Shown here one piece after another: positions 1 through 63,525 of a stretch of 64,000 bases of DNA. Under the pieces are notes generated by a model. That model worked only from the letters and a program-made list of their open reading frames with translations, had not been told where the DNA came from and made no database searches. Source of the stretch: Escherichia phage slur14; sequence record NC_028448.1; one strand, written 5' to 3'. Position 1 is the first letter of the stretch, and each line of letters starts with the position of its first letter. The position numbers and the translations under genes were made by a program.

Positions 1-1590
1 TCTGGTTCTAAAAGACCAATACCAGCATGTGTAATTCCAAAACGTCCAAAAATGATAGGAGTTAAAGAAGTAGATACAAAATTTCTGAAATAGAATACTT
101 TATTTTTAACTAGTGCTTCGTATATAGGAGCAGTCATACTTTGAGCACGATAAACTGTAATGCCTTCTGGTATACGATCACCATTTTCAAAAGCAGAATC
201 TAAATTAGTTATAGCAGCTTCAATTTCTTTTTCACTCATTACTTCATAACGTTCTGGATCATAACGACCCAAAAGAAGATTATTGATGTCAGTATATCCT
301 GAACCGCAATACTCTCTAATGCCACGCTTTTGTGATGGAGTATATTTAGAACCATCACGGGCAATAGTAATATCAATCATTGGACCTGCACCAATTCCAG
401 AGAAACTATAAATCATTCTTTTGAGGAATTTAGTTTTTGTCGCGTTCCAGGAATTTTTAGTTATTTCTTCCCAGACTTCATCTGGCTGTCCTTTACGGGT
501 TTTATTATGTTTATCAAGCCAAGTATCTTTATATTCTTCAAATAATTGATTAACAGCTGCTGCGTATTTCTCTAAACATTTTATTGAAGTAGTCGGTTCA
601 TTTTTAATCGCATTAAGAATTACATCTTTAATTTTTTCAGAAACTTCATTAACCTCACTTTTTGAAAAGAATTTATAGTCATAATGAAGTTCATCTGCAG
701 TTCCTTCGGCAATGATTTTTGCTGCCTTAGTTTTAGAAGCTAATGAATTAATTCCAATTTTCATTTCTTCTGCTTCGGGAATTAAAGGTGCAGTAGCTGG
801 TTTATTAAAATTAGCTGCTGTAGATTCATACTTCTGGAATAATTCACTTTCAAATCTAGAAGACTCTAATGATTGACTTTGTGCAATTGCTCTACGGGAA
901 ATTTTAACTTTAACGATTACAGCTTGATCAGAACGTTTATCATTTTCTTGTGCAATAGATGCTGCAATTGCCTCATTTTTAGTTACTTGAGCTCCAGTAT
1001 CTTTATTGATATAAACATCACCGACCTTCGATTCAACTTTAGTAAAGAGCTCGGTACTAATTTCCGGAACCCCTGGAATGTCTTCTAGCGATACATTTTT
1101 GCGATGTATAAGAATATATGCATACTTTTTATCATAATCCCAGAGTTCCTTAAGAAGGACGTATCTGCCACCTGAACGACTACGGATAAGTCTATCAGCA
1201 ATAACTTGAATTTGTCGAGCTTGACCAGCAGTTTTAGACTTAAGAATACGGAGCATACAGGCATCAATTTTATACTGACGCATTGTTTGCATTGCAACAG
1301 TAAAAACCGAATTGATATAATTAATTGGGCTTGGACCAAGACCTTTCAATTTAGCAATTGAACCTTTAGCGGTTAATGTAAAAGGAACAATATGCATCAT
1401 TTTATCGCCCATCTTTAAATCGCGATTAGTATCACCTCCAGATGTATAGGTACATAAACGAAAACCTGGTTGTTCAATTGCGTCATCAACATGAACTGAA
1501 AAAATTTGTGGTATTTTCTTCTTTGGATTTAAGTTTGTAATTGGAAGAGTAGTATCTTCGTCAAATAATTCTGTAATTAGTTCCATCATA
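1..1590 (-). CDS. alt: ADP-ribosyltransferase Alt, 3' end cut by window edge
   Basis: Continuous minus-strand frame from ATG at 1588-1590 (GAGAGGA SD upstream) running off coordinate 1; translation contains ...YEALVKNKVFYFRNFVSTSLTPIIFGRFG... as remembered for T4 Alt. Absent from ORF track because the stop lies outside the window. Confidence 0.85.
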
Positions 1591-9269: not shown

Positions 9270-9502
9270 AGTACGCCATACACCCTTTGTGCTTCAACTA
9301 ATCCATCAAAATCCAGTTTAAGATGCGATATTTGATCGCCATCGCCTGGATTCACAATTACTAATACTGAACGAGGAGTTTCGGTAATAACACGAACCGA
9401 TGTTTCAGGAAATCGTTCAGAAACCTTATTTACCAATTCCTGAGCAAATAGTTTAACTTTTTCTTGGAATTCTTTAACAGTAATTGGTTTTTCACTTAGC
9501 AT
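9266..9502 (-). CDS. hypothetical protein (cd.2 position)
   Basis: 78-aa ORF. Confidence 0.55.
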   Translation of the reverse strand: MLSEKPITVKEFQEKVKLFAQELVNKVSERFPETSVRVITETPRSVLVIVNPGDGDQISHLKLDFDGLVEAQRVYGVL

Positions 9503-10023
9503 GTTGATCCCAGCTCCTTACTTTCAACGTTTTTAACTAATTTGACAGAAACTAATTCAGCATCTTGAGTAATCATTACCGGGCCTTCTTCATACTCTTC
9601 AAGATATTCTAGAGCTTTCTTTTTAGCTTCTTCCTTCGTATCAGTTTGAGCATAGATATAAAACATACAACCAGTAATACCTACTACTTTCCACTTAATT
9701 TCTTTATCAGTTTTAATTTCAAATTTACTGACAGAATCATCTTTTTGAACTTCTTCGAAAAAAGAATATTCTAACATATAAGCAATTGAAAATAACGGGC
9801 TAACTTTATAAGATTCGCCCATTACATCAACAGCTTTATACCAACAATCATCAATTTCGCGTTTAATGCTAATAACATTTTTCGCAGGATCTATTTTTAC
9901 TTTAAATGAATTTTCCCCAATAAACTGGGCAATTCGTTTATTAGCCCCGCAAGTTTCATTAAAAATATCTTTATATCCAGCTTTAAAGCGATAAACCTTA
10001 TCTTCTTCAAACCATTCGCTCAT
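9496..10023 (-). CDS. hypothetical protein (cd.3 position)
   Basis: 175-aa ORF; early-type promoter upstream at about 10030-10085. Confidence 0.6.
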   Translation of the reverse strand: MSEWFEEDKVYRFKAGYKDIFNETCGANKRIAQFIGENSFKVKIDPAKNVISIKREIDDCWYKAVDVMGESYKVSPLFSIAYMLEYSFFEEVQKDDSVSKFEIKTDKEIKWKVVGITGCMFYIYAQTDTKEEAKKKALEYLEEYEEGPVMITQDAELVSVKLVKNVESKELGSTC

Positions 10024-13411: not shown

Positions 13412-14999
<1,588 letters not shown>

Positions 15000-15021
15000 A
15001 ATAAAATGGGCCTTGCGGCCC
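15000..15021 (-). terminator. hairpin/terminator between nrdB and denA
   Basis: Minus-strand GGGCCGCAAGGCCC followed by ATTTTATT, directly before denA ATG. Confidence 0.5.
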
Positions 15022-15026
15022 ACTCC

Positions 15027-16196: not shown

Positions 16197-16247
16197 AAAT
16201 TTTCCGCTTAGTTAATAGTTGGTGACTCGTCCATGAGTCAAATTATA

Positions 16248-18829: not shown

Positions 18830-19046
18830 ATTGTTTTTCCGTTAATACAGTAATATCGTAGTAACAGTCAGAAGAAGTTTTAACTGTGGAAATTTTATTG
18901 TCAAAATATTCACGAGTCATTTTATGAGTATAGTATTTTTTACCATAAATGATAATAGGCTGTTCTGGTCCTGGAACTTCTAACTCGCTTGGGTTAGGAA
19001 GTGTAAAAAGAACAACGCCAGAAGTATCTTTAAATCGTAAAATCAT
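18783..19046 (-). CDS. hypothetical protein (nrdA.2 position)
   Basis: 87-aa ORF; overlaps preceding ORF by 47 nt, one boundary may be wrong. Confidence 0.45.
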
Positions 19047-19903
19047 ATTGCCATTTTCCCTTTAATTGCTGGATGCGATTCATAATTTTCAAGGATAAAA
19101 TCTTTCGGTTTCATGTATTCAGTTAACCAGTAAAGCTGTGTTTCGGTGTCACAATTTCCAAACTCTATAGGCCAATCAATTTTAAGTTCACACAGTTCTT
19201 TAGGCTCACGACGTAAAATTTCTTTACATTGCTCAGTATGATTCATATAGATGTGAGTATTACCACCAGAAAATATCAAATCTCCTGGGATAAGATTACA
19301 CATCTTAGCCACAATATGCGTCAAGGCAGCGTACGAGGCAATGTTGAATGGCAATCCCAAGAAAACATCTACACTTCTTTGGTACCATTGTAAATCAAGA
19401 TAACCATTACGCACATTAAACTGATAGAACATATGACAGGGCGGTAATGCCATTTGATTGATTTCAGCTGGATTCCATGCTGAAACGATTTGACGTCGAT
19501 CAGTTGGTAATTTTTTAATACGATCAATAGTTTCAACTAATTGATCCACACCACCGAAATCACGCCATTGTTTACCGTATATAGGACCAAGTTCACCACT
19601 ATGATATCCTAGGTCTTTAGCTTGGTTTTCATAGTTATCGTCCCAAATAGTTTTACCTTGAATAAGACTGCCATGAGTGCGAAGACGTAAATCATTAACA
19701 TTGGTAGAACCGGAAATAAACCATAGAAGCTCAGCAATGCATGCATTCCAGGCGAGCTTTTTAGTTGTTACTGCAGGAAAACCTTTTGTTAAATCCCAAC
19801 GCAATTTAGTACCGAACAAAGCAATTGTTCCTGTGCCTGTTCGGTCATCGGTTTCATAGCCATTTTCAAAAATGTCTTTAATTAAATCTTGGTATTGTTT
19901 CAT
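19043..19903 (-). CDS. td: thymidylate synthase
   Basis: 286-aa uninterrupted frame; TS active-site region [11 protein letters not shown]; no intron. Confidence 0.95.
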
Positions 19904-19948: not shown

Positions 19949-21145
<1,197 letters not shown>

Positions 21146-22663: not shown

Positions 22664-23572
22664 TTAAAGGTCATTCAAAAGGTCATCCAGGTCCGTGTCA
22701 TCAGCACTAGATGAACTGCCAGAGCTTGAGCTCATAAAATCATCTTCAGTTTTTGTATTGAAGTCATCAACATTGAATGCATCCAAATCATCAGCAACTT
22801 TATCAGCTTTCTTAGCAGCAGTTGCTGCGGCACCACCCATAGCAGCAGTTCCCATAACTTGACTGAACTTAGTGCTCAGTTCTTCAAACGATTTGAATTT
22901 ATCTTTAGAAGTCATTTCAGAAAGGTCAACCATTTGTTCGAACAGTTCTTTTTGGAAAGATTCATCATCAATGTTTGGAATCGCAGATTGATTCAGGAAT
23001 TTAGATTCGTCGTAGTTACTAAAACCAGAAACTTGTTTAACTTTCAGTACAAAGTTAGCACCTTCCCACGGACAAGTTACATCAACCGGAGTTTCACCCA
23101 TTTCAACATCAACTGCAATCATTGCATTGATTTTATCCCAGATTTTCTTACCGAAACGGTATTTAAATACTTTACCTTCGTTTTCTGGAGCAGCCGGGTC
23201 TTTTACTACAAGAATGTTAGCCCAGTAAGAAGTTTTACGTTTAACAAGGCTGTACTCTTTATTGTCAGTGTTGTACAAATCATTTTTACTGATGTATTGA
23301 CATACTGGACAAGAATCGTAATCACCGTGGGTAGATGAACAGTTTTCAATATACCATTTACCATTTTTCTTGAAACCGTGATTTACAAGAATTGCGAATG
23401 GTGCTTGTTCATCATTTTTAGACGGAAGAAAACGAATTACTGCTTGACCGTTACCCGCATTGTCGAGTTTCAGTTTCCACTCGCCTTTATCTTCAGAAGA
23501 AAAACCACCTTTATTTCCAGCCAGTTTAGCCATTTGTGCAGCGAGTTCAGCAGTAGATTTACGTTTAAACAT
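22664..23572 (-). CDS. 32: single-stranded DNA-binding protein gp32
   Basis: [48 protein letters not shown]... with acidic C-terminal tail; terminator hairpin downstream. Confidence 0.97.
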
Positions 23573-23671
23573 TTTTATTTCCTTTTTAATTTAATTAACA
23601 GTTGGTGCTATGACGATGTATGACCTCATAGCTGGTCAGTGAGATAATTATAATCTATTTATAATAAGCAA

Positions 23672-24325
23672 TTAATACTTGCAAGATTTCACAGTTTCAA
23701 TAAAAACATTTTTAGCTTTCTGTGAATCAATATTTAAAATTTTTCTATAAGCCTTTAACTTTATAGAATAATTATTCCAGACTAAATTATCAGTCTGTTC
23801 ATCATGTTTATCAATTATATTTAAAAACGAATCAAGCAAGATAAACGTTTCAAACGAAATTATATTCGACTGAAGCAGTTTAAAAATATAACTTGATTGA
23901 ACCTTTGGATTATATTCAAAGATTTCTTTAAAAGCAGAAACTTCAACTTTTTTACTAAAATAATAAATGTTGCGAATATCTTCTTCAAACTTAAATTTAA
24001 TTTGCTTTAAGCGTCCGATATATTCACGATAAAACACAAGTGCATCAGCGTCAGAGATGTCACCAATCCAAGCATCTTGGTTAGCAACAAGATTGCTTAT
24101 AAAGATTAAAGCAAGTTCCTTTAATTTATATTTTTCTGATAACTTCTGGAAAAAATACTTATCCCTTCGCTTTTGATAAGCGGCATCAGACACCCGCATG
24201 CACCAATTATACTTAATTACATCATACTTTCCATTCATATGTTGTTTTATCATTAAGTATAATTTATAAACTGATTTACCATCAATATATCTTTCACCAC
24301 CAGCAGGCATGCGGAGTTTAATCAT
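23672..24325 (-). CDS. 59: helicase loader gp59
   Basis: 217 aa, MIKLRMPAGGERYIDGKSVYKLYLMIKQHMNGKYD... Confidence 0.95.
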   Translation of the reverse strand: MIKLRMPAGGERYIDGKSVYKLYLMIKQHMNGKYDVIKYNWCMRVSDAAYQKRRDKYFFQKLSEKYKLKELALIFISNLVANQDAWIGDISDADALVFYREYIGRLKQIKFKFEEDIRNIYYFSKKVEVSAFKEIFEYNPKVQSSYIFKLLQSNIISFETFILLDSFLNIIDKHDEQTDNLVWNNYSIKLKAYRKILNIDSQKAKNVFIETVKSCKY

Positions 24326-38837: not shown

Positions 38838-38987
38838 TTACTGCATGAATGTGATAACTATCATGATAACACGTTGAATTCCGAACGCAAGAAGACCTCC
38901 TGCTACGGCTGGAACAACGCCTAAACCCGCCAGTAAAATGCTACCAGATACTAATGCAGCGCTTGTAATACCAATGAATGGACTCAT
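38838..38987 (-). CDS. small hydrophobic membrane protein
   Basis: 49-aa ORF not in track; ATG overlaps gp52 stop (ATGA), AGAGGAAA SD. Confidence 0.5.
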   Translation of the reverse strand: MSPFIGITSAALVSGSILLAGLGVVPAVAGGLLAFGIQRVIMIVITFMQ

Positions 38988-40312
38988 TTGATTTCCTCTA
39001 AATCTTTGGTGTATTCTGTAACTACATCAGTAGTTTTCCAATATTCGTTTTCTTCTTTCTTAGCTTTAGCTTCTTCAGCAAGTTTCTTTGCTTCGTCGGA
39101 AGTCATATGAAAAATATTCATACCAACTAGTTTATCAACATAAGAAGAATACATCTCAATTTTAGAAAGTTCTTCGGTCAGTTCTTTACGAGTTTTACCC
39201 TGTACAACAATTTCACCTGAAATTACTTTCTTAATGAAATGCGCCTTGGCAAAGGCTAAACGAAATGCTGATTCAGTTTCTTTGATTTTGTTATCAATTC
39301 GTTTTTGGACATAAGTTTTACGAACTTCAACGAAGTCTTTGATTAAATCAACTACGTTATCGTAAACTTGCAGCTTTCCTTTCTCATTAATAACAGTAAT
39401 ATTCTGTGAACGACGCTCAATCAACCCGAAGTCTTTCATAATTTTAGCGTGACGTTCTTCTTCATTATCGCTCAAAGAGTATTCTTTGCGGAATTTAACT
39501 TTGAAGCCAAAACCATGCTCACCACAAGCATCATCCCACGTAATGAAGCCTTTATCTTCAAGCGGGTCTAAGATTTTACTCACATAAGTTTCACGATCAT
39601 ACTTATACGGAATCTCAGTGATATGCATTTGAGTTCGTGAAGTAAACTTATATGTTCCACGAATTTCATATTGCCCATCAATTTCAACGACTTCACCACG
39701 AAATTCTGGGAATTCTACCTTCGGTTTAGTTACTTTCTTTCCTTGAAGAGCTTGCAGTACAGCTTTCTTAACAGAAGAAACACTATGAGGAAGAATGTAA
39801 GTTGCATAACCAGTTGCAATACCGGAAACGCCATTAAGAAGAACAGTAGGAATAACAGGCAAATAGAAAGCAGGCGGAATGTGTTCTTTATCTTGATGTA
39901 CCGGAGCATATTCAGTATCTTTATATACGTTATAGAAATTTTTACTTACACGAGCAAAAATATAACGACTTGCTGCTGCTTTTTGAACGGTACGAGAACC
40001 AAAGTTTCCTTGACCATCTAACAGAGGAAAGTTATTATTCCAAGTATTAGCCATCAAAGCACCTGCGTCTTGCGCAGAGTTTTCACCATGATGATATCCA
40101 AGGTCCGCTACACCACCTGCAATAGAAGCGAGTTTGTGAAACTTATCTTTATTTCCTCGCGCCAAATCAAGAGCTCGAGCAATAACAAATCGTTGAACTG
40201 GCTTAAATCCATCAATCATATTTGGAATGGCACGATTTTCAACCGTGTACATAGCATAAGCCAATGCTTCATTATCAATGATACTTTTTAAATCGCGATT
40301 ATTCAGTTGCAT
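38984..40312 (-). CDS. 52: DNA topoisomerase II medium subunit gp52 (GyrA-like)
   Basis: 442 aa; MQLNNRDLKSIIDNEALAYAMYTVENRAIPNMIDGFKPVQRFV... Confidence 0.95.
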   Translation of the reverse strand: MQLNNRDLKSIIDNEALAYAMYTVENRAIPNMIDGFKPVQRFVIARALDLARGNKDKFHKLASIAGGVADLGYHHGENSAQDAGALMANTWNNNFPLLDGQGNFGSRTVQKAAASRYIFARVSKNFYNVYKDTEYAPVHQDKEHIPPAFYLPVIPTVLLNGVSGIATGYATYILPHSVSSVKKAVLQALQGKKVTKPKVEFPEFRGEVVEIDGQYEIRGTYKFTSRTQMHITEIPYKYDRETYVSKILDPLEDKGFITWDDACGEHGFGFKVKFRKEYSLSDNEEERHAKIMKDFGLIERRSQNITVINEKGKLQVYDNVVDLIKDFVEVRKTYVQKRIDNKIKETESAFRLAFAKAHFIKKVISGEIVVQGKTRKELTEELSKIEMYSSYVDKLVGMNIFHMTSDEAKKLAEEAKAKKEENEYWKTTDVVTEYTKDLEEIK

Positions 40313-43005: not shown

Positions 43006-43267
43006 TTAGACTTTCCTTTTTACCACTGAGATAGGCGTTATATACTTTAAGAGTGCCATAATAAATTCGGTCATTTTCATCTAAAGACTCGCGGTCAAGT
43101 TCATCGAGCTCCTTTTTATCCATGACTATAACATTATTACAGTAAAGAAACCCAAGTTTTTCGTGACCAAACTCAAATTTATTACAGTACACAATATTAG
43201 CGTGATGATTTCCGTGCAGTTTAATCTCTTTTATGTCGGAATCACCGATATTCATACAATAAATCAT
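42938..43267 (-). CDS. hypothetical protein (denB.1 position)
   Basis: 109-aa ORF overlapping denB 5' end by 68 nt. Confidence 0.5.
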   Translation of the reverse strand: MIYCMNIGDSDIKEIKLHGNHHANIVYCNKFEFGHEKLGFLYCNNVIVMDKKELDELDRESLDENDRIYYGTLKVYNAYLSGKKESLNAENESGFTETISDSDIYPIEQ

Positions 43268-43304
43268 AATTTTTCCTTAAAACAAAAGGGCCGAAGCCCT
43301 TATT

Positions 43305-43499
43305 TTATTTGAATTGTGCAATTCTTTTCTCTAGACATTCAGCATAAGATTTCATTGAGATGAACTGTGAAAGTAGCAGTTCTTGCTCAACTGCACTAAC
43401 TGTTAGAAACTTTGCGCTTTCTAAAAATTTGCTCAGTGCATTAATTTTGAGCATTAATTGATCGTATTCTTCTTTTACTCGTGCTTGATAACCTAACAT
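43305..43499 (-). CDS. hypothetical protein
   Basis: 64-aa ORF flanked by GGGCCGAAGCCC hairpins. Confidence 0.5.
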   Translation of the reverse strand: MLGYQARVKEEYDQLMLKINALSKFLESAKFLTVSAVEQELLLSQFISMKSYAECLEKRIAQFK

Positions 43500-43527
43500 A
43501 ATTTTCCTTAGTTAAGGGCCGAAGCCC

Positions 43528-44466
43528 TTATTTAAATTGTTCAGTAACGTCTTCAACTACTTCGTATTGGCAGGTACGCATTTTAGCGTCGTTGTAATCA
43601 ATCGGAATTGATACTACATCGCGAGGATGTACTTTAACTTTTACGACTCGGCTGGTTGAACTGCCAAAGTGACGAATATAAGATTTAGAACACACATGCA
43701 GACCACGAGAACAAGTTTGTGTATCATCGTCATTCACACGAGTACGTGGCATTTTAACTACTTTACCAGGACTGTTATCAAAGGTATTTGAGTGACAGTC
43801 AAAGTAATTACTACGAACTACTTTCCAAGCATAGAAGTAACCATCTTCTGTAATTTCAATATCATTTGCTACCAAGAAATCAAAGAGTCGAGATACCGCT
43901 TTTTGGCTTGGGTTTTCCAACAGATTTTCCAAGAACGGAAAATAAAATTCAAAGTTTTCACCTTTTTCCATCGAGTCAAGAATACGATCAACCAAACCAG
44001 ACCGTAATTCGATATTTTGATAGAACAAGCTTCCGCCTTCAATTCGAACATCGCCGGAAATATATTTTTCAACAGCGCGACGAACATTAATTTTTTGTGC
44101 CGCTTCTTCCAACTTATCTGCTACAAGCAGATTAAGAATTTCCTGGAAGTTTGAATGAGTATTAGGAGTTGCGTTATAAGTTACACCGTCAACGGTAATT
44201 GAAATGAATTTTTTAGATGCATTCCAAATAATGTCAGATTTAGCAACTGGAGCAATAGCTGCATCGCTATTAACTTTAACTGTAATATCACCGCTAATAG
44301 TAACTTTAGAGCGTTTAGCTTCTTCAGCATTTTTCAAAACACGACGGATTGTGTCAACCGATACACCTTGCCAATCAGCCAATTCCTGCTGAGTGTAATT
44401 ACCACTTGAATACAGCTTAACAATTTCAGCTTGTTCGTTTTTGGTCAGGCATTTAATATTGTACAT
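43528..44466 (-). CDS. rIIB: rIIB
   Basis: 312 aa, upstream neighbour of rIIA. Confidence 0.95.
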   Translation of the reverse strand: MYNIKCLTKNEQAEIVKLYSSGNYTQQELADWQGVSVDTIRRVLKNAEEAKRSKVTISGDITVKVNSDAAIAPVAKSDIIWNASKKFISITVDGVTYNATPNTHSNFQEILNLLVADKLEEAAQKINVRRAVEKYISGDVRIEGGSLFYQNIELRSGLVDRILDSMEKGENFEFYFPFLENLLENPSQKAVSRLFDFLVANDIEITEDGYFYAWKVVRSNYFDCHSNTFDNSPGKVVKMPRTRVNDDDTQTCSRGLHVCSKSYIRHFGSSTSRVVKVKVHPRDVVSIPIDYNDAKMRTCQYEVVEDVTEQFK

Positions 44467-44477
44467 AATTTTCCTTA

Positions 44478-46655
44478 TTAGGCCGCAAGGGCCTTCATAG
44501 TTTTAGCGATTTGGGAAACTTCATCATCACTTAAAGAGTTGCGATAACCAATGAAGTCGGAAACAATACGGAATTTCTTGGTAAACTCAGCAACCATTTT
44601 ATCACTATTTTTTGAAGCATTACGTGATAATTCATCAAAGAGATTAGTTACTGTCCAGATATCATGACCGATGGTATCTTTTCCACCATTGAAATACACA
44701 CCGCGTAATGAACTAACCATATTACCAAGTCGTGTATATTCTTCAGAAACTTCATCTGTACTGAAGTACTTCATCATAAAATCTAGTTCAGGATACTTGA
44801 TAATTTTATCAATATATCGTTGAGCTGAACTTGAATAACCTACATACTTATCATAATCTACATCATCAAAAGCATCTACATATAAATCACGCAAAGCTTC
44901 AAAAATACATTGGCACTGACCGAGTTCTTTTACCTTTTTCTGTAAAAGCGGACGAATAACATAAAATTCATTAATGCCAATAAGATTAGCCATACGAATC
45001 AAAATATTCATAGATGGATGACAAAGAGATGTAGTACCATCCATAGAGAAAATATCAGAACGATGCATATACGCTACATAACCAGTAATTTCATCTGCTT
45101 CTGATGTGAGCGTAAATAATTCCTCTTTTTCCCAGCGCCCATCTTTAATTTCAAATTTAAATGCTGTAGCAGCTTTAGGACGAGGAGCTTTACTTTTAAC
45201 TACCTTTGGAATATAGCTTTTAACTAAAGCTTCGATTTCTGACAAATAATGAATGTTAACTTCATCACTTTCAAACATCGCCATAATATCAGGAAGTAAA
45301 TCAATCTGCGATTCTACTTCTGGATTAATAAACAGAAGACGCTCGTTGTGATGAATATTTAAAGTGTTATTAAATTCACTATCATCTAACGCATGTGCTA
45401 ATCCACGAACAATATTAACACGATTTTTAATATTATCAATAACGATATTAATTTTTGTTGTATTAATACCAAACAGACGATAACTTGATGCAACGGCTGA
45501 AGTTTCATGACTTTGCTTAATGCGTTTCAGTCGAGGGTCAAGATTTACTTCATACACAACTCCTGCATTGCATAACTTACTGTCAGGTTCAAACATACTC
45601 TGCATCTTCTTATATGACAGATTTTTAGTCGTGAATTTGACTGAATTACTAATCATATAATCTCGAGCAGAATACCCCATCTTCATCAATTCACGATATG
45701 TGTGACGAGGAGATGTAGATTCTTTAAATCGTTTTACATCTTCATTAAATGCTTTCTCACTGAGTTCTTTAACTCGTTCAATGATATTTTTACGAGTGCG
45801 ATCATCCAGTGAAAGAGCCTCGCGAGATGGAGCAATATCAAGTGAACCCATTGGAAATTTAATGTAATTCACTTCATTGCGAATGCTTAGCCAGTTACGG
45901 TCTCTAATAACACCATCGATAGGATAAACAATACCGCCATAGATAGCATATAATCCACCACGATCAGGCCAGTATCTTTCTGGATTTACACCGTAATAGT
46001 CATCAAAATCCGGAAAATAATCAATTTCGCGGTCAAGACCATTAATGATAGCCAAATCTTTGAATGGTCGCATGATATAAGAAACTTCATAAGCAAAGTT
46101 TCTAAAGTCTTTTTCTTCAACTGGAACTACGATTTCAATACCAGTTTTATCATTTGGACCCATTTCTTTTACGAATGTAGGTTTAATTTGTGGACCATCG
46201 CCATCCATGTAAGCTACATAACCACGAATTTCGCCTTTATGATATGAAGTAATACTAAATGTATCAGTATAACTAAACGGAGATTTAGAACCTAAACCAA
46301 ATCCGCCAATGAAATCGTTAGATTCAGCCTTAGATGAACTAAAGTATGAATTATACAACCCAGGAGAATTATCATCACCTTGAATATCAAAATCGCTCAT
46401 ACCCGGACCAAAATCTCGACAAACAAATCGTGGATCTAAACGTCCAGGAACTTGTATGATAAATTTTTCAGGATTTCCATTGAGAGCATGGGCATCAATC
46501 ATGTTGGTAATCAATTCACGGACTACTGCGCGAATTTTGTTTGTATACAAATCAGATGACAGAATTTTAAATACTTTAGGAGATGCTGTGATGCTAAATG
46601 CTTTTGATTTAGAACCATTACCAAGAATTGTTTCTTTTTCAGTGGTGATAATCAT
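44478..46655 (-). CDS. rIIA: rIIA
   Basis: 725 aa, [57 protein letters not shown]... Confidence 0.95.
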
Positions 46656-46665
46656 AATTTCCTCA

Positions 46666-46869
46666 TTAATTCATATTACGCTTAATAACTTCAGCAACTT
46701 CTAGTAGTTCATCTTTAGTTGCAGTGTCGGATTGAATTTTATCTCTAATATCCTTAAAGCGGTTTTTAAATTCTTCGGCTTCTCCCATATCGAAAAAGCG
46801 TTGAATGATTCTATATTCTCGATGAACTGCTTTATCAAAAAGTTCTAAATTTACTTTATATGATTTCAT
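46666..46869 (-). CDS. hypothetical protein (rIIA.1 position)
   Basis: 67-aa ORF; early promoter upstream. Confidence 0.6.
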
Positions 46870-46887
46870 TTCAATATCCTCATTTGC

Positions 46888-46925
46888 CCAATTAATTATA
46901 CCACATCCTTGTGGTAAAGTAAACT
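46888..46925 (-). promoter_or_regulatory. early promoter upstream of rIIA.1
   Basis: GTAAAC at 46919-46924 with AATTATACCA -10 region about 17 bp away on the minus strand. Confidence 0.55.
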
Positions 46926-48741
46926 ACTGACTCATCCATTCTTTGCGAAGGTCAGCATTATCTCCCATGAGCATTTCAAAAAGCTCTTTCCAGTTCTCAG
47001 GAAGTTTAACAACATCATATACTGGATTTTGAATCATTTCACGATATTCAGATTTTTCCAAAGAGCCAAGTCCTTTAATATAACGGATGCTATGTTTAGG
47101 TAGAGCATCTTTGGCACTCTCATATTCAGCGACTGTATAAAACCATTCTTGTTTTTTACCGACCTGAGCGATGATTACAGGAGTTTTGACGAAGCGAATT
47201 CTTCCTTGTTCAAACAGTTCTGGCCAATTACTAAAAAATCCGAGCAGAGAAGGATAAATGCTTCCTAGACCATCGTGGTCAGCATCGGTCATAATAGCAA
47301 TATTATGATAATTCAAGTTTTCAGCCTTTTCACCAAGAACTAATCCAGTGATTGCGCAAATGTCAAACAGTTCTTTGTTTTTAAGCATATCGGCATATGA
47401 CATACCCCAACTGTTGAGAACTTTACCACGCAATGGATAACCACCATGAAGTTCTTTATCACGAACATCAATAAGATATCCGATAGCAGAATCACCCTCA
47501 GTCAAGAACAATGTAGTGTCAGCATCTTTACCGCACAGATTAGCTTTAATATGTTTATGAACCTTTGCCTTAGAAGCCTTTTTAGCTGCTTTAGTTTCTG
47601 CTGCTTTTTCTGCCGCCAATTTACGAGCCAAAGCAGCTTCAATAATCGGCATCAGAATTGCTTCATTATTTAGAATAGCGCGTGAAATCTTTTTAGCGTC
47701 AAGTTGAATATGACTACGAATTTCGCCAAATGGAGAAGTCAAACGCTCTTTAGTTTGAGAATCAAATCGCATGTTTTTCATATCACGAACAAACATAACG
47801 ATTGTCAAACATTCTTTTACACGCGCTTTAGTTACATCAATTTTGAACTTACGTTTGATTTGTGGAATAAGGTCTTCACAAATATCATCCATAACACAGT
47901 CAATGTGATGGCCACCATTCTTAGTGTGAATGTTATTCACGTAAGTTAATTGACGAAATCCATCCGGTGAACGACCAACCGCAATAGAACAATTTTCTTG
48001 TTCTTGAACGATAGCATGCTCATCATATTGGCGTGCATATTTCTTAAAATTGCCCTGAACCTTTTTACCATTAAAGGTAAATTGAATATCAGGATAAACT
48101 ACTGCAAGTGTCTGGAGACGATCTAGTGTAATGTCAAGATAAACTTGGGACAGCTCATTAGTTTCAAATGACATAAAATCAGGAATGAAAGTAACACGAG
48201 TTCCTTTCCATTTTCCAGGAATATCTTCCCATGATTTATTTTCCATGCCGTTTGAACAACGAACTACAATATTATTTTGACCATCACCAGTTTCACCGAC
48301 AAACATCACAGAAAAAATGTTTGTCAAACTAGAACCAACACCATTCATACCGCCAGTGACGCGTTCTTTATCATCGCCAAAGTTACCACCTGCTTTTGGA
48401 ATAGTCCATGCAGCAACAGGACCAGGAATTTCTTCACCGGTAGGTGTTTTAACCATCGCCTGTGGAATACCACGACCGTTATCTTCAACTGTTACTTGAT
48501 TGTTTTTAATAGTAACATTAATTTTATTTGCGAATTTAAACTTAGTACGAATACCTTCATCTACTGAGTTATCGATAATTTCATCAATAAGCTTAACAAG
48601 ACCAGGTACATACTGAACACTTTCCCATTTACCAAACAGAAAGCGCTCATGCATTTCATTAGCAGAAGAGCCAATGTACATGCCGCTACGCTTTTTGATA
48701 TGTTCAATATCGCTCAGAATTTTAATTTCATTCTTAATCAT
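46924..48741 (-). CDS. 39: DNA topoisomerase II large subunit, fused 39/60 form (GyrB-like)
   Basis: 605 aa from ATG at 48739-48741; one frame containing ATPase region and a C-terminal ~115 aa (...IAIMTDADHDGLGSIYPSLLGFFSNWPELFEQGRIRFVKTP...) that T4 encodes separately as gene 60. Confidence 0.95.
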   Translation of the reverse strand: MIKNEIKILSDIEHIKKRSGMYIGSSANEMHERFLFGKWESVQYVPGLVKLIDEIIDNSVDEGIRTKFKFANKINVTIKNNQVTVEDNGRGIPQAMVKTPTGEEIPGPVAAWTIPKAGGNFGDDKERVTGGMNGVGSSLTNIFSVMFVGETGDGQNNIVVRCSNGMENKSWEDIPGKWKGTRVTFIPDFMSFETNELSQVYLDITLDRLQTLAVVYPDIQFTFNGKKVQGNFKKYARQYDEHAIVQEQENCSIAVGRSPDGFRQLTYVNNIHTKNGGHHIDCVMDDICEDLIPQIKRKFKIDVTKARVKECLTIVMFVRDMKNMRFDSQTKERLTSPFGEIRSHIQLDAKKISRAILNNEAILMPIIEAALARKLAAEKAAETKAAKKASKAKVHKHIKANLCGKDADTTLFLTEGDSAIGYLIDVRDKELHGGYPLRGKVLNSWGMSYADMLKNKELFDICAITGLVLGEKAENLNYHNIAIMTDADHDGLGSIYPSLLGFFSNWPELFEQGRIRFVKTPVIIAQVGKKQEWFYTVAEYESAKDALPKHSIRYIKGLGSLEKSEYREMIQNPVYDVVKLPENWKELFEMLMGDNADLRKEWMSQ

Positions 48742-48810
48742 CACTTATCCTCGTTTGGTTTCGGGAATATTATACTCCGGTAATCATAAAGCTAAAGGCC
48801 CGAAGGCCTT

Positions 48811-49080
48811 TTATTTAAAACGAATAGTTGAATCCTTAAAGAACAGCCCAGAACATACTGTTCCTTCTACTTTCTGCCCAGTAGGTCCAATAGCACGAAA
48901 TCCAGTATGTTGGAAATCATTTTCAGAACAACCAAACCAATTATATCCAGTGATTTCAATATTAGTAAAACCACTTGAAGATAAAACTTTGGTTGCATTA
49001 TCAGCATCAGTACATCCTGCTAAAGACACTGCTAATACTAATGCCGCGATAGAACGATTAATATATTTCATAATTTTCAC
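48811..49080 (-). CDS. putative lipoprotein
   Basis: 89 aa; signal peptide with lipobox LAGC. Confidence 0.6.
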   Translation of the reverse strand: MKIMKYINRSIAALVLAVSLAGCTDADNATKVLSSSGFTNIEITGYNWFGCSENDFQHTGFRAIGPTGQKVEGTVCSGLFFKDSTIRFK

Positions 49081-49448
49081 TCAAATTTAATGGCTTGAAG
49101 AAGACTAATAATTCTCAAGCGACTTCTTTCATCTTTAACTGTAAAAGAAAGGGGGTCACCAGATTTCATAGTAATGGTACATTCAAAATCAAAATCTTCG
49201 GAAACTTCTTTGAAGAAGTCAAATTCTTCATCATAAATTAGAACATTACTCTGACAACTATGAAGAATTTTTCCATCATTTCCAGATGCTGTACTAATCA
49301 TTGTAACATTATGACCTTTCATATCTTCAACGATAAATTCACTAGTCAATATTACAGCATTAATAGAACTATTCCTATTACTAGCAGAAAGTAGATATTT
49401 CTGTTCTTCACCTTCACGAATGCGATATTTCTTACCAATTTTAAACAT
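49077..49448 (-). CDS. hypothetical protein
   Basis: 123-aa ORF. Confidence 0.6.
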   Translation of the reverse strand: MFKIGKKYRIREGEEQKYLLSASNRNSSINAVILTSEFIVEDMKGHNVTMISTASGNDGKILHSCQSNVLIYDEEFDFFKEVSEDFDFECTITMKSGDPLSFTVKDERSRLRIISLLQAIKFE

Positions 49449-49450
49449 AA

Positions 49451-49627
49451 TTACCCTTTAAGTAAGTCGTAAAAACCACCATTCACATGCTTAGGAGCAG
49501 AAGGCCGACGAGTAGACAAACGATGACATTTAGGGCAAACATCATTTTCTCGTTCAGAAATCTTTTTAATTTTTTCATATTCATGCCCGCAATCTTCGGA
49601 TTGGCATTTATAATCATACATTGGCAT
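49451..49627 (-). CDS. zinc-ribbon small protein (CxxC...CxxC)
   Basis: 58-aa ORF not in track: MPMYDYKCQSEDCGHEYEKIKKISERENDVCPKCHRL...; AGGA SD. Confidence 0.55.
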   Translation of the reverse strand: MPMYDYKCQSEDCGHEYEKIKKISERENDVCPKCHRLSTRRPSAPKHVNGGFYDLLKG

Positions 49628-49629
49628 AA

Positions 49630-50049
49630 TTATTCCTTAAAGTGTGCTTTCAACATCTGATACAAGGACCATGCCTGTTCATTATTTTCAATAGTAACTT
49701 TCATGACTGGGAATTTTGTGAAATCTTCTATTTGTTCTTGCTCTTCCTGCTCTTGTTCTTCAGCTGCCTGATATGGATTTTCCACTTCATCAAAGAACCC
49801 AGCTTCGTTAGTAGAAAGCCAGATAAAGTTTTCGTCAAGGATATCACCATGTGTTGCATATCCAACTGTGCCAGTAGATGTCACAATTTTAGTAGGACGA
49901 CCAAGATGGTCAACATCTAAAATTTTAAAAGGATGCATACCTAAGCGGCGTGCATAGATTCCGTTATCAGTATGGTCTTTAATAAAAGCTTCTTGAGCTT
50001 GTTTATTTTTAAATTGATACCATTTATTAACTTCAAATTTAATAGCCAT
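49630..50049 (-). CDS. hypothetical protein with acidic EQEQEEQEQ tract
   Basis: 139-aa ORF. Confidence 0.6.
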
Positions 50050-50264
50050 TAATAAATTTCCTTCCAGTAAGTTGTACCGTCTTCAGTGATTTCACGGAAT
50101 ACACCATAAATCGGTTGTTTATCACCAACCTTTTCATACACATAAACCGAAGTCAAGTGAGTAAACTTGATGGTGTGTTCCTTTTGAACTACTACCAAAT
50201 TTGGATCGAATAATACATCTTCAAATTCGTCATTAGTGCAGTTCTGAACAATTTTACGTTTCAT
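50049..50264 (-). CDS. hypothetical protein
   Basis: 71-aa ORF. Confidence 0.5.
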
Positions 50265-50277
50265 TACAATTTCCTCA

Positions 50278-50559
50278 TTAATTGAACAGTGGAGCGATGC
50301 GTTTCAGAAGAGTAGCAGCACCTTTGGCGAATTTTACATCATGAAAAACAGTTTCTTCTTCCGTTACAACACGAGCTTTAATGTTTTCACAATCCCAATT
50401 TTTACGAACAATCTTCAAAAGCTGCAGTAAATCTTTACATTCAGCAATATCGATAACACATCCACGAGAATCTTCCATTATCGCACGATAACCATAAGCC
50501 ATACCATAATCGTTGAAAGATTGCTCGATGATAATTAAGTTTTCCATTTTATTCTCCAA
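50278..50559 (-). CDS. hypothetical protein
   Basis: 93-aa ORF with promoter cassette upstream. Confidence 0.55.
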   Translation of the reverse strand: MENKMENLIIIEQSFNDYGMAYGYRAIMEDSRGCVIDIAECKDLLQLLKIVRKNWDCENIKARVVTEEETVFHDVKFAKGAATLLKRIAPLFN

Positions 50560-50644
50560 GTTGTTTTCTGTATCAGTAGTTGATATTGATATAGTACCAT
50601 AATCAACTACTGATGTATATAGTTTTATGAAAAAATTTTAAACT

Positions 50645-51136
50645 TTATGCATAACGAGCTTTGCTATAGTGTTTAATCCAGCTTTCAGGAATGACTTTGT
50701 ATGTTCCTAAAAATACCGTGTTGTACAACTTAACACCGTCTTCTACCCATTGATCGGTAATGTATGCACACATAGCGCGAGTACGGTTAACAACACCTTC
50801 CTCACCTTCAGTAAATTCAAACTCATAAGGAGCAACGAACTTGATAGCTTGACCGAGTTTCCACTTAAAGTCTACACCTACATGCGAAGTATCAATCGTT
50901 TCAATTCCTTTAGCGGGAACAGCTTTCAAAAACGCAGGCTCAAGAAATTTCCATCGAACATAACCAAACTGAGGTTTAGACATTCCATCTTTAGGAATGA
51001 TACGCACTTTTACTTCAGAATCTTCATCTTTAACACCATGTTTAAGCTGAATGCTTACGACTTCAACCAATTTTCCTGCTGCTTTAGAACGGGATTTATC
51101 AGATACACGAGCAATTTCACCGATATTAATATTCAT
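50645..51136 (-). CDS. motB: MotB, DNA-binding modifier of transcription
   Basis: 163 aa, MNINIGEIARVSDKSRSKAAGKLVEV...; position between 39 cluster and dexA. Confidence 0.8.
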   Translation of the reverse strand: MNINIGEIARVSDKSRSKAAGKLVEVVSIQLKHGVKDEDSEVKVRIIPKDGMSKPQFGYVRWKFLEPAFLKAVPAKGIETIDTSHVGVDFKWKLGQAIKFVAPYEFEFTEGEEGVVNRTRAMCAYITDQWVEDGVKLYNTVFLGTYKVIPESWIKHYSKARYA

Positions 51137-51209
51137 AATTATCTCTCACTTGTTAAAAAGATTTTATACTCCGCAGGACCATTATACTCTGGTCCCAAGA
51201 GTTTGTAAA

Positions 51210-51713
51210 CTAGCTTACACGAACATTAATCACTGCGCTGCGAGGAACTACAGAGTACTCTCCAGCATGAACTACATTAAGAAGTTCAACGCCATCTTCA
51301 ATCCACTGGTCAGTTACCCAACCGCCGACCGGATTCGCGAATGGACGACGAATGTAAACTGCCTTACACAACAAATCAGTCGGGTCTTCAATTTTTTCAA
51401 CTGGTGCCACATACATAGAAACTAAATCCATATCAATATGGGATTTTTCCTGTTCTTCTTTTTCAATTTCTGTCAATAGACTAAAATCTTTTTCATAAAT
51501 AATAAGCGATGACACCATTCCATAATAGTTTCTAATTTCAATATACATCATGCCGATAAGAATTCCGCTATTAACACTAATAACAGTAAAAGGATATCCG
51601 CCAGTTAAAGCAAGAAGTTCACAAAACTTATTATGAGCTGTATTAGACAGTACCGGAAAATTCTTAATTTCATCAAATTTTTTCAATTGATAAACAGCAT
51701 TATTTTTAATCAT
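51210..51713 (-). CDS. MotB C-terminal-domain paralogue
   Basis: 167 aa; C-terminus TDQWIEDGVELLNVVHAGEYSVVP aligns with MotB TDQWVEDGVKLYNTVFLGTYKVIP. Confidence 0.6.
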   Translation of the reverse strand: MIKNNAVYQLKKFDEIKNFPVLSNTAHNKFCELLALTGGYPFTVISVNSGILIGMMYIEIRNYYGMVSSLIIYEKDFSLLTEIEKEEQEKSHIDMDLVSMYVAPVEKIEDPTDLLCKAVYIRRPFANPVGGWVTDQWIEDGVELLNVVHAGEYSVVPRSAVINVRVS

Positions 51714-55335: not shown

Positions 55336-55336
55336 A

Positions 55337-56083: not shown

Positions 56084-56205
56084 ATTTTTCTCACATCTTA
56101 CGGACGGTTAACTACTTATACTATAACATTTTTACTTTAACTTGTAAACAACTTTATGAAAAATGCTTTAAAACTTTCATGGTATAATGAATCTAAGTCC
56201 TTCCA

Positions 56206-57428: not shown

Positions 57429-57495
57429 GATAGCCTCCGTATACTTCAGAAGCTATCATATCATCGTTAGAAAGGAAAGTAAACAACTTTTTGAA

Positions 57496-57678: not shown

Positions 57679-57686
57679 ATTAATTC

Positions 57687-58974: not shown

Positions 58975-58982
58975 AATTTTCC

Positions 58983-59617: not shown

Positions 59618-59863
59618 TTATTCACCAGTTACTTTCCACAAATCTTCATTTGCAGCAATCCATTCAGTACGTTGATTTTCTTCATATACTGTAGAATATG
59701 CTGCTTTTTCTGAAGGGAATGTCTGATAATGAGCACCAGAAATTTTGTGAACGTCAGAATAAAGAGGGAAAGCTACAGAAATTTCCTTTCCTTCAATTTT
59801 CTTATTTCCATCTAATTTCTGCTCAAATGTTTTGATATTAACATAACCGCGAGTACTAGCCAT
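59618..59863 (-). CDS. soc: small outer capsid protein Soc
   Basis: 81 aa, MASTRGYVNIKTFEQKLDGNKKIEGKEISVAFPLYSDVHKISGAHYQTFP...; terminator hairpin downstream. Confidence 0.9.
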   Translation of the reverse strand: MASTRGYVNIKTFEQKLDGNKKIEGKEISVAFPLYSDVHKISGAHYQTFPSEKAAYSTVYEENQRTEWIAANEDLWKVTGE

Positions 59864-59879: not shown

Positions 59880-60089
59880 TTAAATTACATGATTATTTAT
59901 AATAAATTCTCGCGGAACGTTAAAATACCCAATTTTAGTTAATATAACAACATCGCCGTTAATAATTACCGGAGAATAATCTTCTGGAGCATTAAATTTC
60001 CAATGGGCTCTAATATTATATCCATCAGAACCAAATGCTCGACTAGCCGGTCTCCCGGCTTTTTGCCATGCATAAAAATCAAATTTCAT
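59880..60089 (-). CDS. hypothetical protein (soc.1 position)
   Basis: 69-aa ORF. Confidence 0.55.
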   Translation of the reverse strand: MKFDFYAWQKAGRPASRAFGSDGYNIRAHWKFNAPEDYSPVIINGDVVILTKIGYFNVPREFIINNHVI

Positions 60090-60283
60090 TTTGAATGCTC
60101 TATAATTAATTTTAAAGCTTCTTCACTGACAAAAATTTCGTCAGGACCTTCTATAATTTCAACCATACGAAGTTGATTAGTTAAGAGCTCACACACGAGC
60201 TCTTTGTTATAATCTTTAAATAGCTGGTCAATACGTTTCTTATGGGCTTTCTTGAGCTGGCGTTTATTTAAACTAGCCATCAA
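60086..60283 (-). CDS. hypothetical protein (soc.2 position)
   Basis: 65-aa ORF. Confidence 0.55.
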   Translation of the reverse strand: MMASLNKRQLKKAHKKRIDQLFKDYNKELVCELLTNQLRMVEIIEGPDEIFVSEEALKLIIEHSK

Positions 60284-60798
60284 TAACCTCGGTCTTGACG
60301 AGCGAAGTTTTCAGCATTTTTCAGATAATAAAGTTTAAAGATTTCTTCAGCCGACATTCCAAGAGCAATAAATTTATTCATGAAAAAGTGAAATTGATCA
60401 ATCAGTTCAAATTTAATTTCAAGCTGATCTTCGGGAGATAAATCTTGAATTTTCTTGGATTGCATTTCAGAATAACGTTTCTTCCAAGGTTTCCATACAG
60501 CAGAAGCTTCTTTTTCACCATTACTCATACCACCAAGAGAAGTATATAGCTCGCGAGTTTCATCTGCGATATAATCGTCTTGGTTTCGCAACCAAGCAAG
60601 AACTTCTCCTGCAGTTTCAAGTGAATCAGGATGACGATTTGTTTCTGGCTTATCATTAGCCAAACGAATCTGTAAATGCCGCTGCATGTCAAGCATAACC
60701 TGCAATGGGTCAATACTGTGCATAATATACTCAGCATATGCACGATTTGCTTTATCAACACCTTCGATCAAATGAGCACATTCATTAAAGTGAGCCAT
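60280..60798 (-). CDS. 56: dCTPase/dUTPase gp56
   Basis: 172 aa from ATG at 60796-60798 (MAHFNECAHLIEGVDKA...). Confidence 0.9.
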   Translation of the reverse strand: MAHFNECAHLIEGVDKANRAYAEYIMHSIDPLQVMLDMQRHLQIRLANDKPETNRHPDSLETAGEVLAWLRNQDDYIADETRELYTSLGGMSNGEKEASAVWKPWKKRYSEMQSKKIQDLSPEDQLEIKFELIDQFHFFMNKFIALGMSAEEIFKLYYLKNAENFARQDRGY

Positions 60799-60858: not shown

Positions 60859-62198
<1,340 letters not shown>

Positions 62199-63523: not shown

Positions 63524-63525
63524 TT

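Follow-up and report, generated by a model that had tools for sequence, protein, structure and literature searches.

In phage T4, the topoisomerase genes 39 and 60 are reportedly split by a MobA element and expressed with a 50 nt translational bypass, a picture that is credited to Huang et al. in 1988 and Bonocora et al. in 2011. The element cuts the gene within the region of the TOPRIM DxD motif and brings the 50 nt bypass gap with it. Insertion of MobA deletes 64 nt, and the uninserted state has been termed 'parental Topo2L' (bioRxiv 10.1101/2022.08.31.505936). Phage T6 has a two-subunit topoisomerase whose structure has been solved (PMC11461880). More generally, T4 has already been described as the oddity in endonuclease load (PMC2988022).

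We compared these systems with a 64,000 nt stretch of phage DNA (termed the window; Escherichia phage slur14, NC_028448.1), which is 100% identical to Escherichia phages slur03 and slur08 (Tequatrovirus). A first-pass annotation made from the sequence alone had described an unsplit gene 39/60, intronless td and nrdB genes, and the lack of mobE, segG and segF, and had called for alignment to T4 and T2. These alignments bear out each of the structural claims. In blastn comparisons with T4, the window lacks the T4-only segments at all six sites, and T2 is collinear with the window, and free of gaps, across nrdB-nrdA-td-frd, 32-59, rIIB-39 and soc-56-dam-61, a span that takes in every one of them. 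All six sites are T2-like and carry no scars of the T4 elements. Because the differences are exact, structural and seen by alignment, chance is not at issue. On this sequence evidence, the window very probably (probability of about 0.93) represents the ordinary, parental Tequatrovirus configuration, in which the T4-type endonuclease inserts are absent and gene 39 is unsplit. The coordinates of the relevant features are collected in Table 1.

Table 1. Positions in the window of genes, spacers and segments at the sites compared with T4 and T2.
Feature	Position	Strand	Basis
nrdB, intronless ribonucleotide reductase small subunit, 389 aa	15027..16196	-	Pfam Ribonuc_red_sm
nrdA-nrdB spacer, 51 bp	16197..16247	-	ORF ends; blastn against T4
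td, intronless thymidylate synthase, 286 aa	19043..19903	-	Pfam Thymidylat_synt 1-266/266, E 7e-96
32-59 spacer, 99 bp, between gene 32 (22664..23572) and gene 59 (23672..24325)	23573..23671	-	blastn
Gene 38, T4-type tail-fibre assembly chaperone, 183 aa	34721..35272	+	Pfam Caudo_TAP
Gene 52, GyrA-like partner subunit, 442 aa	38984..40312	-	Clean ORF; T4 gp52
Gene 39, unsplit GyrB-like large subunit of type IIA topoisomerase, 605 aa	46924..48741	-	ORF; Pfam; T2 gp39
64 nt parental segment, replaced in T4 by the 1117-bp MobA element	47260..47323	-	blastn against T4
Two small ORFs, 69 aa (59880..60089) and 64 aa (60086..60280)	59880..60280	-	Pfam DUF7422; PHROGs 5773, 5782

Gene 39 encodes an unsplit topoisomerase subunit

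The single frame that had been proposed for gene 39 is present, and it runs without interruption through 605 codons from its ATG. A GTG codon immediately upstream of this ATG would yield a protein of 606 aa. The product matches the Pfam families HATPase_c, DNA_gyraseB and TOPRIM_C above their cut-offs and is composed of GHKL ATPase, transducer and TOPRIM domains, with the sequence EGDSA at aa 415 and DADHDG at aa 486. The gp39 protein of T2 is 99.8% identical over 605 aa, from which it differs by one residue, and the two proteins are alike in length, domain order and structure. In addition, residues 1-605 of the window gp39 match residues 1-605 of PDB entry 8ylu_C end to end. This chain, named DNA topoisomerase by its depositors, we take to be the T6 gp39 of PMC11461880.

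The partner subunit is encoded by gene 52, which lies 6.6 kb from gene 39 and is annotated as DNA topoisomerase II in NC_042129. Its product is 99.3% identical to T4 gp52 over 442 aa. Like the enzymes of T2 and T6, gp39 and gp52 would form a two-subunit A2B2 type IIA topoisomerase, which during phage replication is predicted to open a transient, ATP-dependent double-strand break and to pass one duplex through it. Given what is described for the T6 and T2 proteins, the two subunits probably assemble as a heterotetramer that relaxes DNA in an ATP-dependent manner.

The T4 topoisomerase is the same enzyme with the same gene flanks, and BLASTP aligns the window protein with two T4 products in turn. 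Amino acids 1-473 correspond to T4 gp39 1-473 (99%), and amino acids 472-605 correspond to T4 gp60 27-160 (96%). Thus, a counterpart of gp60 does form the C-terminus of the window gp39 as had been suggested, but it comprises 134 aa and not the ~115 aa given earlier, a figure that agrees with the 114 codons that follow the bypass gap in T4. At the junction itself, blastn places 64 nt of the window against 1117 nt of T4. The 64 nt segment spans the TOPRIM DxD motif as well as the position, just after Gly491 of the window protein (window 47269-47271), at which T4 carries the 50 nt bypass gap. Where T4 carries GGA-UAG...GGA-UUA at the gap, the window carries GGT-CTA, and its frame runs on there as GAT GGT CTA GGA. 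The 141 nt around the segment are 96.5% identical to T2.

The 1117-bp element of T4 comprises the tail of gene 39, mobA, 60.1, the head of gene 60 and the 50 nt bypass gap, all of which are absent from the window. T4 gp39 has a 43-aa C-terminal extension that the window gp39 lacks, and the unique head of T4 gp60 (roughly 26-31 aa) is likewise missing from the window. None of the 15-mers of the bypass gap was found anywhere in the window. A tblastn search of the window with T4 mobA, a 37-aa pseudogene fragment, returned a best E of 4.6, and an HMM built from mobB-E gave no match there. With the frame continuous and the 1117 nt of T4 missing, the window has no gene-60 split, no bypass element and no mobA, in agreement with the earlier description. 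The junction matches exactly the published account of parental Topo2L and its 64 nt deletion (bioRxiv 10.1101/2022.08.31.505936). In the window, the MobA element is not inserted in gene 39, and the 64 nt that it deletes are retained.

The td, nrdB and intergenic sites are empty

The td and nrdB genes had also been reported as uninterrupted, and this is correct. Both ORFs are intact and match their Pfam families over the full length, and blastn reveals that 1021 nt of T4 td are missing at window 19351/19356 and 600 nt of T4 nrdB (the intron with I-TevIII) at window 15529/15532. No homologues of I-TevI or I-TevIII were found in the window by tblastn. A scan with Rfam at gathering thresholds produced no match in the window, nor did it detect the T4 td and nrdB introns that served as a positive control. 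Since the scan missed the introns of T4 as well, the absence of introns from td and nrdB rests on the alignment and the intact ORFs.

The spacers tell of similar absences. Between nrdA and nrdB (16197-16247), the unaligned sequence amounts to 55 nt in the window versus 700 nt in T4, and T4 nrdB.1 and mobE are absent. No mobE homologue was found in the window by tblastn or HMM, and the spacer region is 96.5% identical to T2. The short distance and the lack of mobE that had been claimed for this site are therefore both confirmed, with ~700 bp of T4 missing. The distance of about 100 bp proposed for the 32-59 interval proved to be 99 bp. Here, 35 nt of the window remain unaligned versus 623 nt of T4 that include segG, a gene absent from the window, and 141 nt at the site are 100% identical to T2.

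Between soc (59618..59863) and gene 56 (60280..60798), blastn sets 415 nt of the window against 696 nt of T4. As described previously, two small ORFs stand in place of T4 segF. The same two ORFs are present in T2 (AP018813 14223..14623; 98.2% identical), where they correspond to soc.1 and soc.2, names that PMC5931544 quotes from Belle et al. (2002).

The window gp56 is the T2 allele (98% identical to T2, 70% to T4), and the thymidylate synthase protein is about 85% identical to T2 and to T4, such that the td allele of T2 is about 15% diverged at the protein level from that of the window. For these reasons, td and gene 56 of the window are, as judged by sequence, not simply 'T4 minus the insert'. 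The td, nrdB, nrdA-nrdB, 32-59 and soc-56 sites are likewise unoccupied, T2-type target alleles, and T4 endonucleases might be expected to cut and convert the window sites in a mixed infection.

Other endonucleases and the tail fibre

Searches with the 15 T4 homing endonucleases (tblastn) and with HMMs of the seg and mob families recovered nothing in the window. A weak tblastn match to segF at window 810-1145 (E 0.018) falls within alt and was put down to chance. When the 15 proteins and family HMMs were applied to slur03, in a search that covered all but 1,660 bp of its genome, no homologue was found. The sole GIY-YIG protein in the window is denA/EndoII (14589..15023), which is 99% identical to that of T4 and is not a homing endonuclease.

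Hidden homing endonucleases were also sought in the T4-absent inserts (9496-10023, 11659-11979, 19949-20320, 20900-21489, 36261-36711, 42108-42371, 42938-43267, 49077-49448, 50278-50547, 51210-51713, 53441-53701, 61638-62198 and 62298-62498). None of the 17 window-only ORFs scanned carries an HNH, GIY-YIG or LAGLIDADG domain according to Pfam and PHROGs, and this candidate source of endonucleases was rejected. One of these ORFs, encoding 186 aa beside dam (61638..62198), has a PD-(D/E)XK fold and motif, and gave no match in a sequence search of the PDB. T4 lacks the ORF owing to a 540-bp deletion between TTTGTGAT direct repeats, after which only its last 88 nt remain. Invasion by a free-standing nuclease was rejected as an explanation for this ORF, and the 540-bp deletion represents a loss in T4.

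The first-pass annotation had gone on to liken the whole genome to the T2-type uninvaded state. This holds for the six sites, which are collinear with T2, but 'uninvaded' overstates the case for the genome, because the deposited annotation of slur03 includes an HNH endonuclease ORF by the tRNA cluster, outside the window. The T4-type tail fibres that had been noted are present. The 183-aa gp38 is 67.6% identical to T4 gp38 and shows no match to the 262-aa adhesin gp38 of T2; both gp38 and gp37 are T4-type in the window, whereas those of T2 are of the adhesin type. In the mosaic T-even genomes, the type of tail fibre is not linked to which sites endonucleases occupy.

The element-free state is common among T4 relatives

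Only about 43 records in the phage collection contain the T4 39/60 cassette, versus about 480 close relatives that hold the region (481 records, T2 included, contain most of window 46000-50000). Since so few carry the cassette, a fused gene 39 is the norm. Other T4 elements occur in 50 (segF), 142 (segG), 118 (nrdB intron) and 197 (td intron) records of the collection. The element-free state is thus not distinctive, but is usual among the relatives of T4. The two-subunit topoisomerase of T2 and T6, parental Topo2L, soc.1 and soc.2 in place of segF, and the exceptional endonuclease load of T4 have all been published already. The slur03-type genome shows once more, in one field isolate, an element-free configuration known for T2 and T6 since the 1980s-2000s.

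Possible histories of the empty sites

Empty sites of this sequence are compatible alike with a history free of invasion and with re-conversion through recombination with an uninvaded phage. We consider it unlikely that the lineage formerly carried T4-type elements, in part or in full, and that gene conversion in mixed infections with phages free of them, or precise intron loss, removed these elements and restored the sites. Such loss gains some credence from the mosaic nature of T-even genomes, seen here in the T2 allele of gp56 and a third allele of td, and from the genome of Escherichia phage vB_EcoM_Lutter (MT682714). Lutter is 99.2% identical to the window over positions 1-25000 and 99.6% identical from nrdA to td exon 2, up to the intron site; exon 1, the td/frd ORF and frd are together 96.0% identical. 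At window 19351/19356, where the window is intronless, Lutter td is interrupted by a 1020-bp intron, which holds an ORF of 245 aa, as long as I-TevI. An intron at the same position in a background that is 99.6% identical indicates that its gain or loss was very recent. However, homing is biased towards gain, and the six sites are cleanly T2-like without scars. Furthermore, gene 39 cannot return to its parental state by simple deletion, because the MobA element swaps the 64 nt for a diverged copy (bioRxiv 10.1101/2022.08.31.505936), and the 64 nt of the window are the parental, T2-like sequence.

Still less likely is the explanation that the target alleles of the window are immune, being too diverged for cleavage by T4-type endonucleases rather than never having met them. 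The cleavage and recognition region of I-TevI in td does have many differences from the T4 exons in a gene whose product is 85% identical to T4 and T2, and the product of gene 56, the SegF target, is 70% identical to that of T4. Against this, Lutter hosts an intron in the same td allele. This observation rules out an I-TevI-resistant td allele as the main reading, and by extension from Lutter we assume that the window td would be sensitive to I-TevI. The gene 56 allele of the window is that of T2 (98%), and T2 gene 56 is a documented substrate of SegF (Belle et al., 2002, quoted in PMC5931544). Similarly, the window and T2 are 96.5% identical in the target region of gene 39, and MobA was shown to act on that of T2 according to the account that bioRxiv 10.1101/2022.08.31.505936 gives of Bonocora et al. 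(2011).

Finally, a mis-assembly or annotation artefact near the ends of a deposited record can be dismissed as a source of the fused frame, for although RefSeq NC_042129 is broken inside gene 39, with a 127-bp terminal duplication and only a 460-aa fragment annotated, the 39/60 junction is about 900 bp away from the break, the gene 39 region is in one piece in the slur08 record, and T2 is among the 481 records in all that hold most of this region, ~43 of them with the T4 cassette. The break at the record ends of NC_042129 could nevertheless give the false impression of a topoisomerase gene that is shortened or split.

Implications for endonuclease invasion in Tequatrovirus

It had been suggested earlier that this genome would be useful for dating homing-endonuclease invasions. 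That use is weak, since Lutter, a near-identical phage, already carries a td intron at precisely this site. Gain or loss of an intron between genomes that are more than 99% identical, as in the slur03 and Lutter pair, implies that invasions are to be dated by population surveys that take in hundreds of genomes, and not from single genomes.

We tentatively raise the possibility, which we do not favour strongly, that slur03-type phages are truly naive at the six sites and form natural before-and-after pairs with near-identical relatives that differ from them by single elements alone, such as Lutter with its td intron. If so, these pairs would allow direct measurement of co-conversion tract lengths, and of how fast and in what order endonucleases invaded wild Tequatrovirus populations. 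In homing and marker-exclusion crosses with MobA, SegF, SegG, MobE and I-TevI, the slur03-type genome would also be a handy naive recipient.

Gene 39 is a single uninterrupted frame

The first-pass annotation described gene 39 as one 605-aa frame, and the open reading frame recovered here (see the table below) agrees, with HATPase_c, DNA_gyraseB and TOPRIM_C domains in its product. Residues 1-473 of this product are 99% identical to residues 1-473 of T4 gp39, and residues 472-605 are 96% identical to residues 27-160 of T4 gp60. The final 43 residues of T4 gp39 and the initial ~26 residues of T4 gp60 have no equivalent in the window gene.

In a nucleotide comparison, T4 was found to carry 1117 nt in place of 64 nt of the window. 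This T4 segment contains the gene 39 tail, mobA, 60.1, the gene 60 head and the 50 nt gap that is bypassed during translation. T4 reads GGA-TAG, the 50 nt gap and then GGA-TTA, whereas the window frame at the same point reads GAT GGT CTA GGA. Furthermore, none of the 15-mers of the T4 gap is present anywhere in the window. The gene 60 split, its bypass element and mobA are therefore absent, as had been proposed. The annotated gp60 share of about 115 aa holds for the portion of gp60 past the gap, but 134 aa correspond in total.

The MobA element described by Manning and Atkins (bioRxiv 10.1101/2022.08.31.505936) is 1097-1106 nt long, removes 55-75 nt from the parental gene (64 nt in the example they give), and gives ORF1 a tail of ~44 aa and ORF2 a head plus the bypass cassette. 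The same authors find insert-free ‘parental’ genomes, with 96-99% DNA identity, in every clade, and recount that, in mixed infection, T2 acquired the split and the 50 nt insert through copying by an intact MobA. The window is a parental genome in this sense. It is improbable, though still worth weighing, that the empty sites arose by secondary loss through conversion from element-free phages; at gene 39, where the 64 parental nt are still in place, a deletion would not suffice and gene conversion would be needed.

Other T4 insertion sites are also empty

Besides the 39/60 cassette (MobA element), five more T4-only segments are missing from the window when it is compared by blastn with the matching T4 regions.

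Features of the window and T4-only segments. Record counts are from the phage collection, in which ~480 records cover the bulk of the gene 39 region of the window or of its first 25 kb, and give records with at least 80% of the segment and records with any match.
Feature	Window position	Strand	In window	T4 length (nt)	Records, at least 80%	Records, any match
gene 39	46924..48741	-	605 aa counted from ATG			
gp52 gene	38984..40312					
td	19043..19903	-	286 aa			
frd-td ORF	19949..20320	-	115-123 aa			
denA (endonuclease II)	14589..15023					
gene 56 (dCTPase)	60280..60798	-				
ORF beside dam	61638..62198	-	186 aa; stop overlaps dam start codon			
goF-like ORF	49077..49448	-	123 aa			
related ORF	9496..10023	-	175 aa			
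39/60 cassette	47260-47323		64 nt	1117	41	43, many of them T4 stocks
nrdB intron	15529/15532		absent	600	118	191
nrdB.1 + mobE			nrdA-nrdB spacer of 51 bp	700	20	143
td intron (query T4 143544-144564)	19351/19356		absent	1021	197	260
segG			32-59 spacer of 99 bp	623	142	142
segF			415 nt with ORFs of 69 and 64 aa	696	50	78

The td and nrdB (389 aa) frames are intact and their family matches run full length. These results bear out the annotation of both genes as uninterrupted, of nrdA-nrdB and 32-59 spacers without mobE and segG, and of two small ORFs in place of segF between soc and 56. The T4-type assignment of the 183-aa gp38 likewise stands: this protein has a Caudo_TAP domain and shares 67.6% identity with T4 gp38, and the T2 gp38 (262 aa) is unrelated to it. 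Flanking genes are clean ORFs that are 98-100% identical to T4, with the exception of gp56 (70%), which at 98% identity to T2 is the T2 allele. Identity to T4 is 100% in the adjoining soc and 98% in dam, a pattern that fits a T4 segF cassette that brought its own gene 56 allele. Where frd and td overlap in T4, the window has an ORF of phrog_1928, which T2 and phage Lutter also carry.

The alignment to T4 and T2 called for by the first-pass annotation was run, and the sites that lack the T4-only segments are gap-free against T2 (AP018813). Single blocks span nrdB-nrdA-td-frd (10721-21155), 32-59 (21828-31856), rIIB-39 (43228-51211) and soc-56-dam-61 (53708-64000). T2 has a gene 39 of 1818 nt, the same two small soc-56 ORFs, an nrdA-nrdB spacer of 51 bp, an intronless td and a 32-59 spacer of 99 bp. 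Its gp39 is 99.8% identical to that of the window, its gene 39 target region 96.5% and its 32-59 spacer 100%.

Judged from the segment counts, each empty state is in the majority, and the fused form of gene 39 clearly predominates. Older PCR surveys suggested that the td intron is far rarer than 197 of ~480 close Tequatrovirus records. Edgell et al. (PMC2988022) enumerate the T4 sites, and according to them the 15 endonuclease genes of T4 are not approached by any other T-even-like phage. A passage of PMC5931544 credits Belle et al. 2002 with the finding that T2 has soc.1 and soc.2 where T4 has segF, and another field isolate without all these genes is reported in that paper. Thus, the first-pass observation is confirmed and its structural interpretation is correct, and the biology was already known.

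The td allele and the dating of invasions

The td protein is ~85% identical to both the T2 and T4 thymidylate synthases, which share 98% identity, and the neighboring nrdA and frd each show 98% identity to T4. By sequence, the window td is a divergent allele and not ‘T4 minus intron’; ~100 records match it at at least 95% identity, versus 524 in the 80-90% band. Lutter (MT682714.1, 141706-147253, aligned with window 17873-20901) is 99.6% identical over the stretch that begins in nrdA and runs up to the td intron site, and has a 1020-bp intron exactly at 19351/19356 that contains an ORF of 245 aa, matching I-TevI in size. Past the intron, exon 1, the td/frd ORF and frd are together 96.0% identical to the window, and this stretch may be a co-conversion tract.

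Because the Lutter intron resides in the window td allele, this allele is not intrinsically immune. Immunity of the resident alleles is therefore a doubtful explanation for the empty sites, and the target sites are moreover T2-like. The presence of the intron in so similar a sequence indicates that its gain or loss was very recent.

The usefulness of this genome for dating homing-endonuclease invasions had been overstated. Lutter already carries the td intron, and the tail-fibre genes lie >10 kb from every T4 insertion site in a highly mosaic genome, such that tail-fibre type is uninformative on invasion timing. Informative pairs with and without the element, such as Lutter and slur03 (a genome matching the window, described below), are already in the databases.

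Identity to T4 dips next to T4 endonuclease sites, to 87.7% in the nrdB 5′ part (15532-16196), 83.4% in td exon 1 (19356-19906) and 89.4% in 56-dam (60317-61725). Other aligned blocks are mostly at 92-98%, with several distant from endonuclease sites also <92%; the dips fit flanking-marker co-conversion in T4 history.

Source genome and endonuclease search

By megablast, three parts of the window are 100% identical to Escherichia phages slur03 (LN881728 / NC_042129) and slur08 (LN881733), Tequatrovirus isolates from cattle slurry (PMC4698387). Window 1-48339 is the exact reverse complement of NC_042129 1-48339, and the window continues past the linear ends of that record, where a 127-bp duplicate (window 48213-48339) is probably assembler overlap. 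An assembly artefact at gene 39 is scarcely credible, as the slur08 record, T2 and hundreds of genomes hold this region and the T4 cassette is found in only ~43.

None of the 15 T4 homing endonucleases gave a significant tblastn match in the window, nor in slur03 outside one stretch of 1,660 bp. Family HMMs for seg/I-Tev and mob matched none of the six-frame ORFs. The sole GIY-YIG protein is denA, 99% identical to its T4 counterpart, which is not a homing endonuclease. In Pfam and PHROGs searches, the ORFs of ~12 inserts absent from T4 show no HNH, GIY-YIG or LAGLIDADG domain. Two ORFs absent from T4, of 123 and 175 aa, have a common N-terminal region and both match PHROGs 622 and 3710, the first also matching a goF family (phrog_13003). 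These two ORFs and goF seem to make up a small paralogous family dispersed through the early regions.

Outside the window, directly upstream of the slur03 tRNA cluster, a 202-aa ORF (NC_042129.1 98739..99347) is annotated as ‘HNH endonuclease’. It has a weak Pfam HNH match (E 0.005), weak helix-turn-helix matches and no similarity to the T4 mob family. The resemblance to a T2-type uninvaded state holds for the sites, which are collinear with T2, but given this annotation the slur03 genome may not be strictly devoid of nucleases of the homing type.

Also outside the window, a beta-glucosyl-HMC-alpha-glucosyltransferase gene (NC_042129.1 146277..147119) lies beside uvsX with no segA between. This enzyme is of the T2/T6 type, and T4 has beta-gt and segA there. 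DNA modification of the T2/T6 type is thus combined in this genome with tail-fibre genes of the T4 type.

A putative nuclease gene beside dam

The 186-aa ORF is carried by T2 and 145 phage records and is missing from T4. It has sub-threshold Pfam matches to DpnII and BanI, and a D72...E85-x-K87 motif that is invariant across its few homologs. Foldseek neighbors of its AlphaFold model (pLDDT 79) are mostly PD-(D/E)XK nucleases at low TM-scores (0.3-0.48), and include Bax1, McrC, the R2 endonuclease domain, Mus81, Can2 and Nt.BspD6I. The product is probably a nuclease with a restriction-endonuclease fold whose translation is coupled to that of the phage Dam methylase. Two TTTGTGAT direct repeats (window 61719-61727 and 62258-62266; T4 17704-17711) bound a clean 540-bp deletion in T4, which keeps the last 88 nt of the ORF upstream of dam. 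Read from these repeats, the difference is a T4 loss and not a gain in the window phage.

Implications for the topoisomerase

The slur03 RefSeq/GenBank record is linearised within gene 39, and therefore only a 460-aa fragment is annotated (record 34..1416); the window and the slur08 record both contain the complete gene. The annotation in NC_042129.1 could be misread as a truncated or split topoisomerase gene.

The gene 39 product matches the solved chain 8ylu_C, taken to be the T6 gp39 of PMC11461880, residue for residue over residues 1-605. Topoisomerase II of T2 and T6 consists of two subunits, gp39 and gp52, and the three-subunit T4 enzyme is the exception (PMC11461880). Because of this full-length match, the two-subunit T2 and T6 enzymes and the gp52 gene in the window, we infer that gp39 and gp52 most likely use the standard A2B2 type IIA topoisomerase mechanism. 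Such an unsplit enzyme would need neither ribosomal bypass nor the assembly of a split TOPRIM domain.
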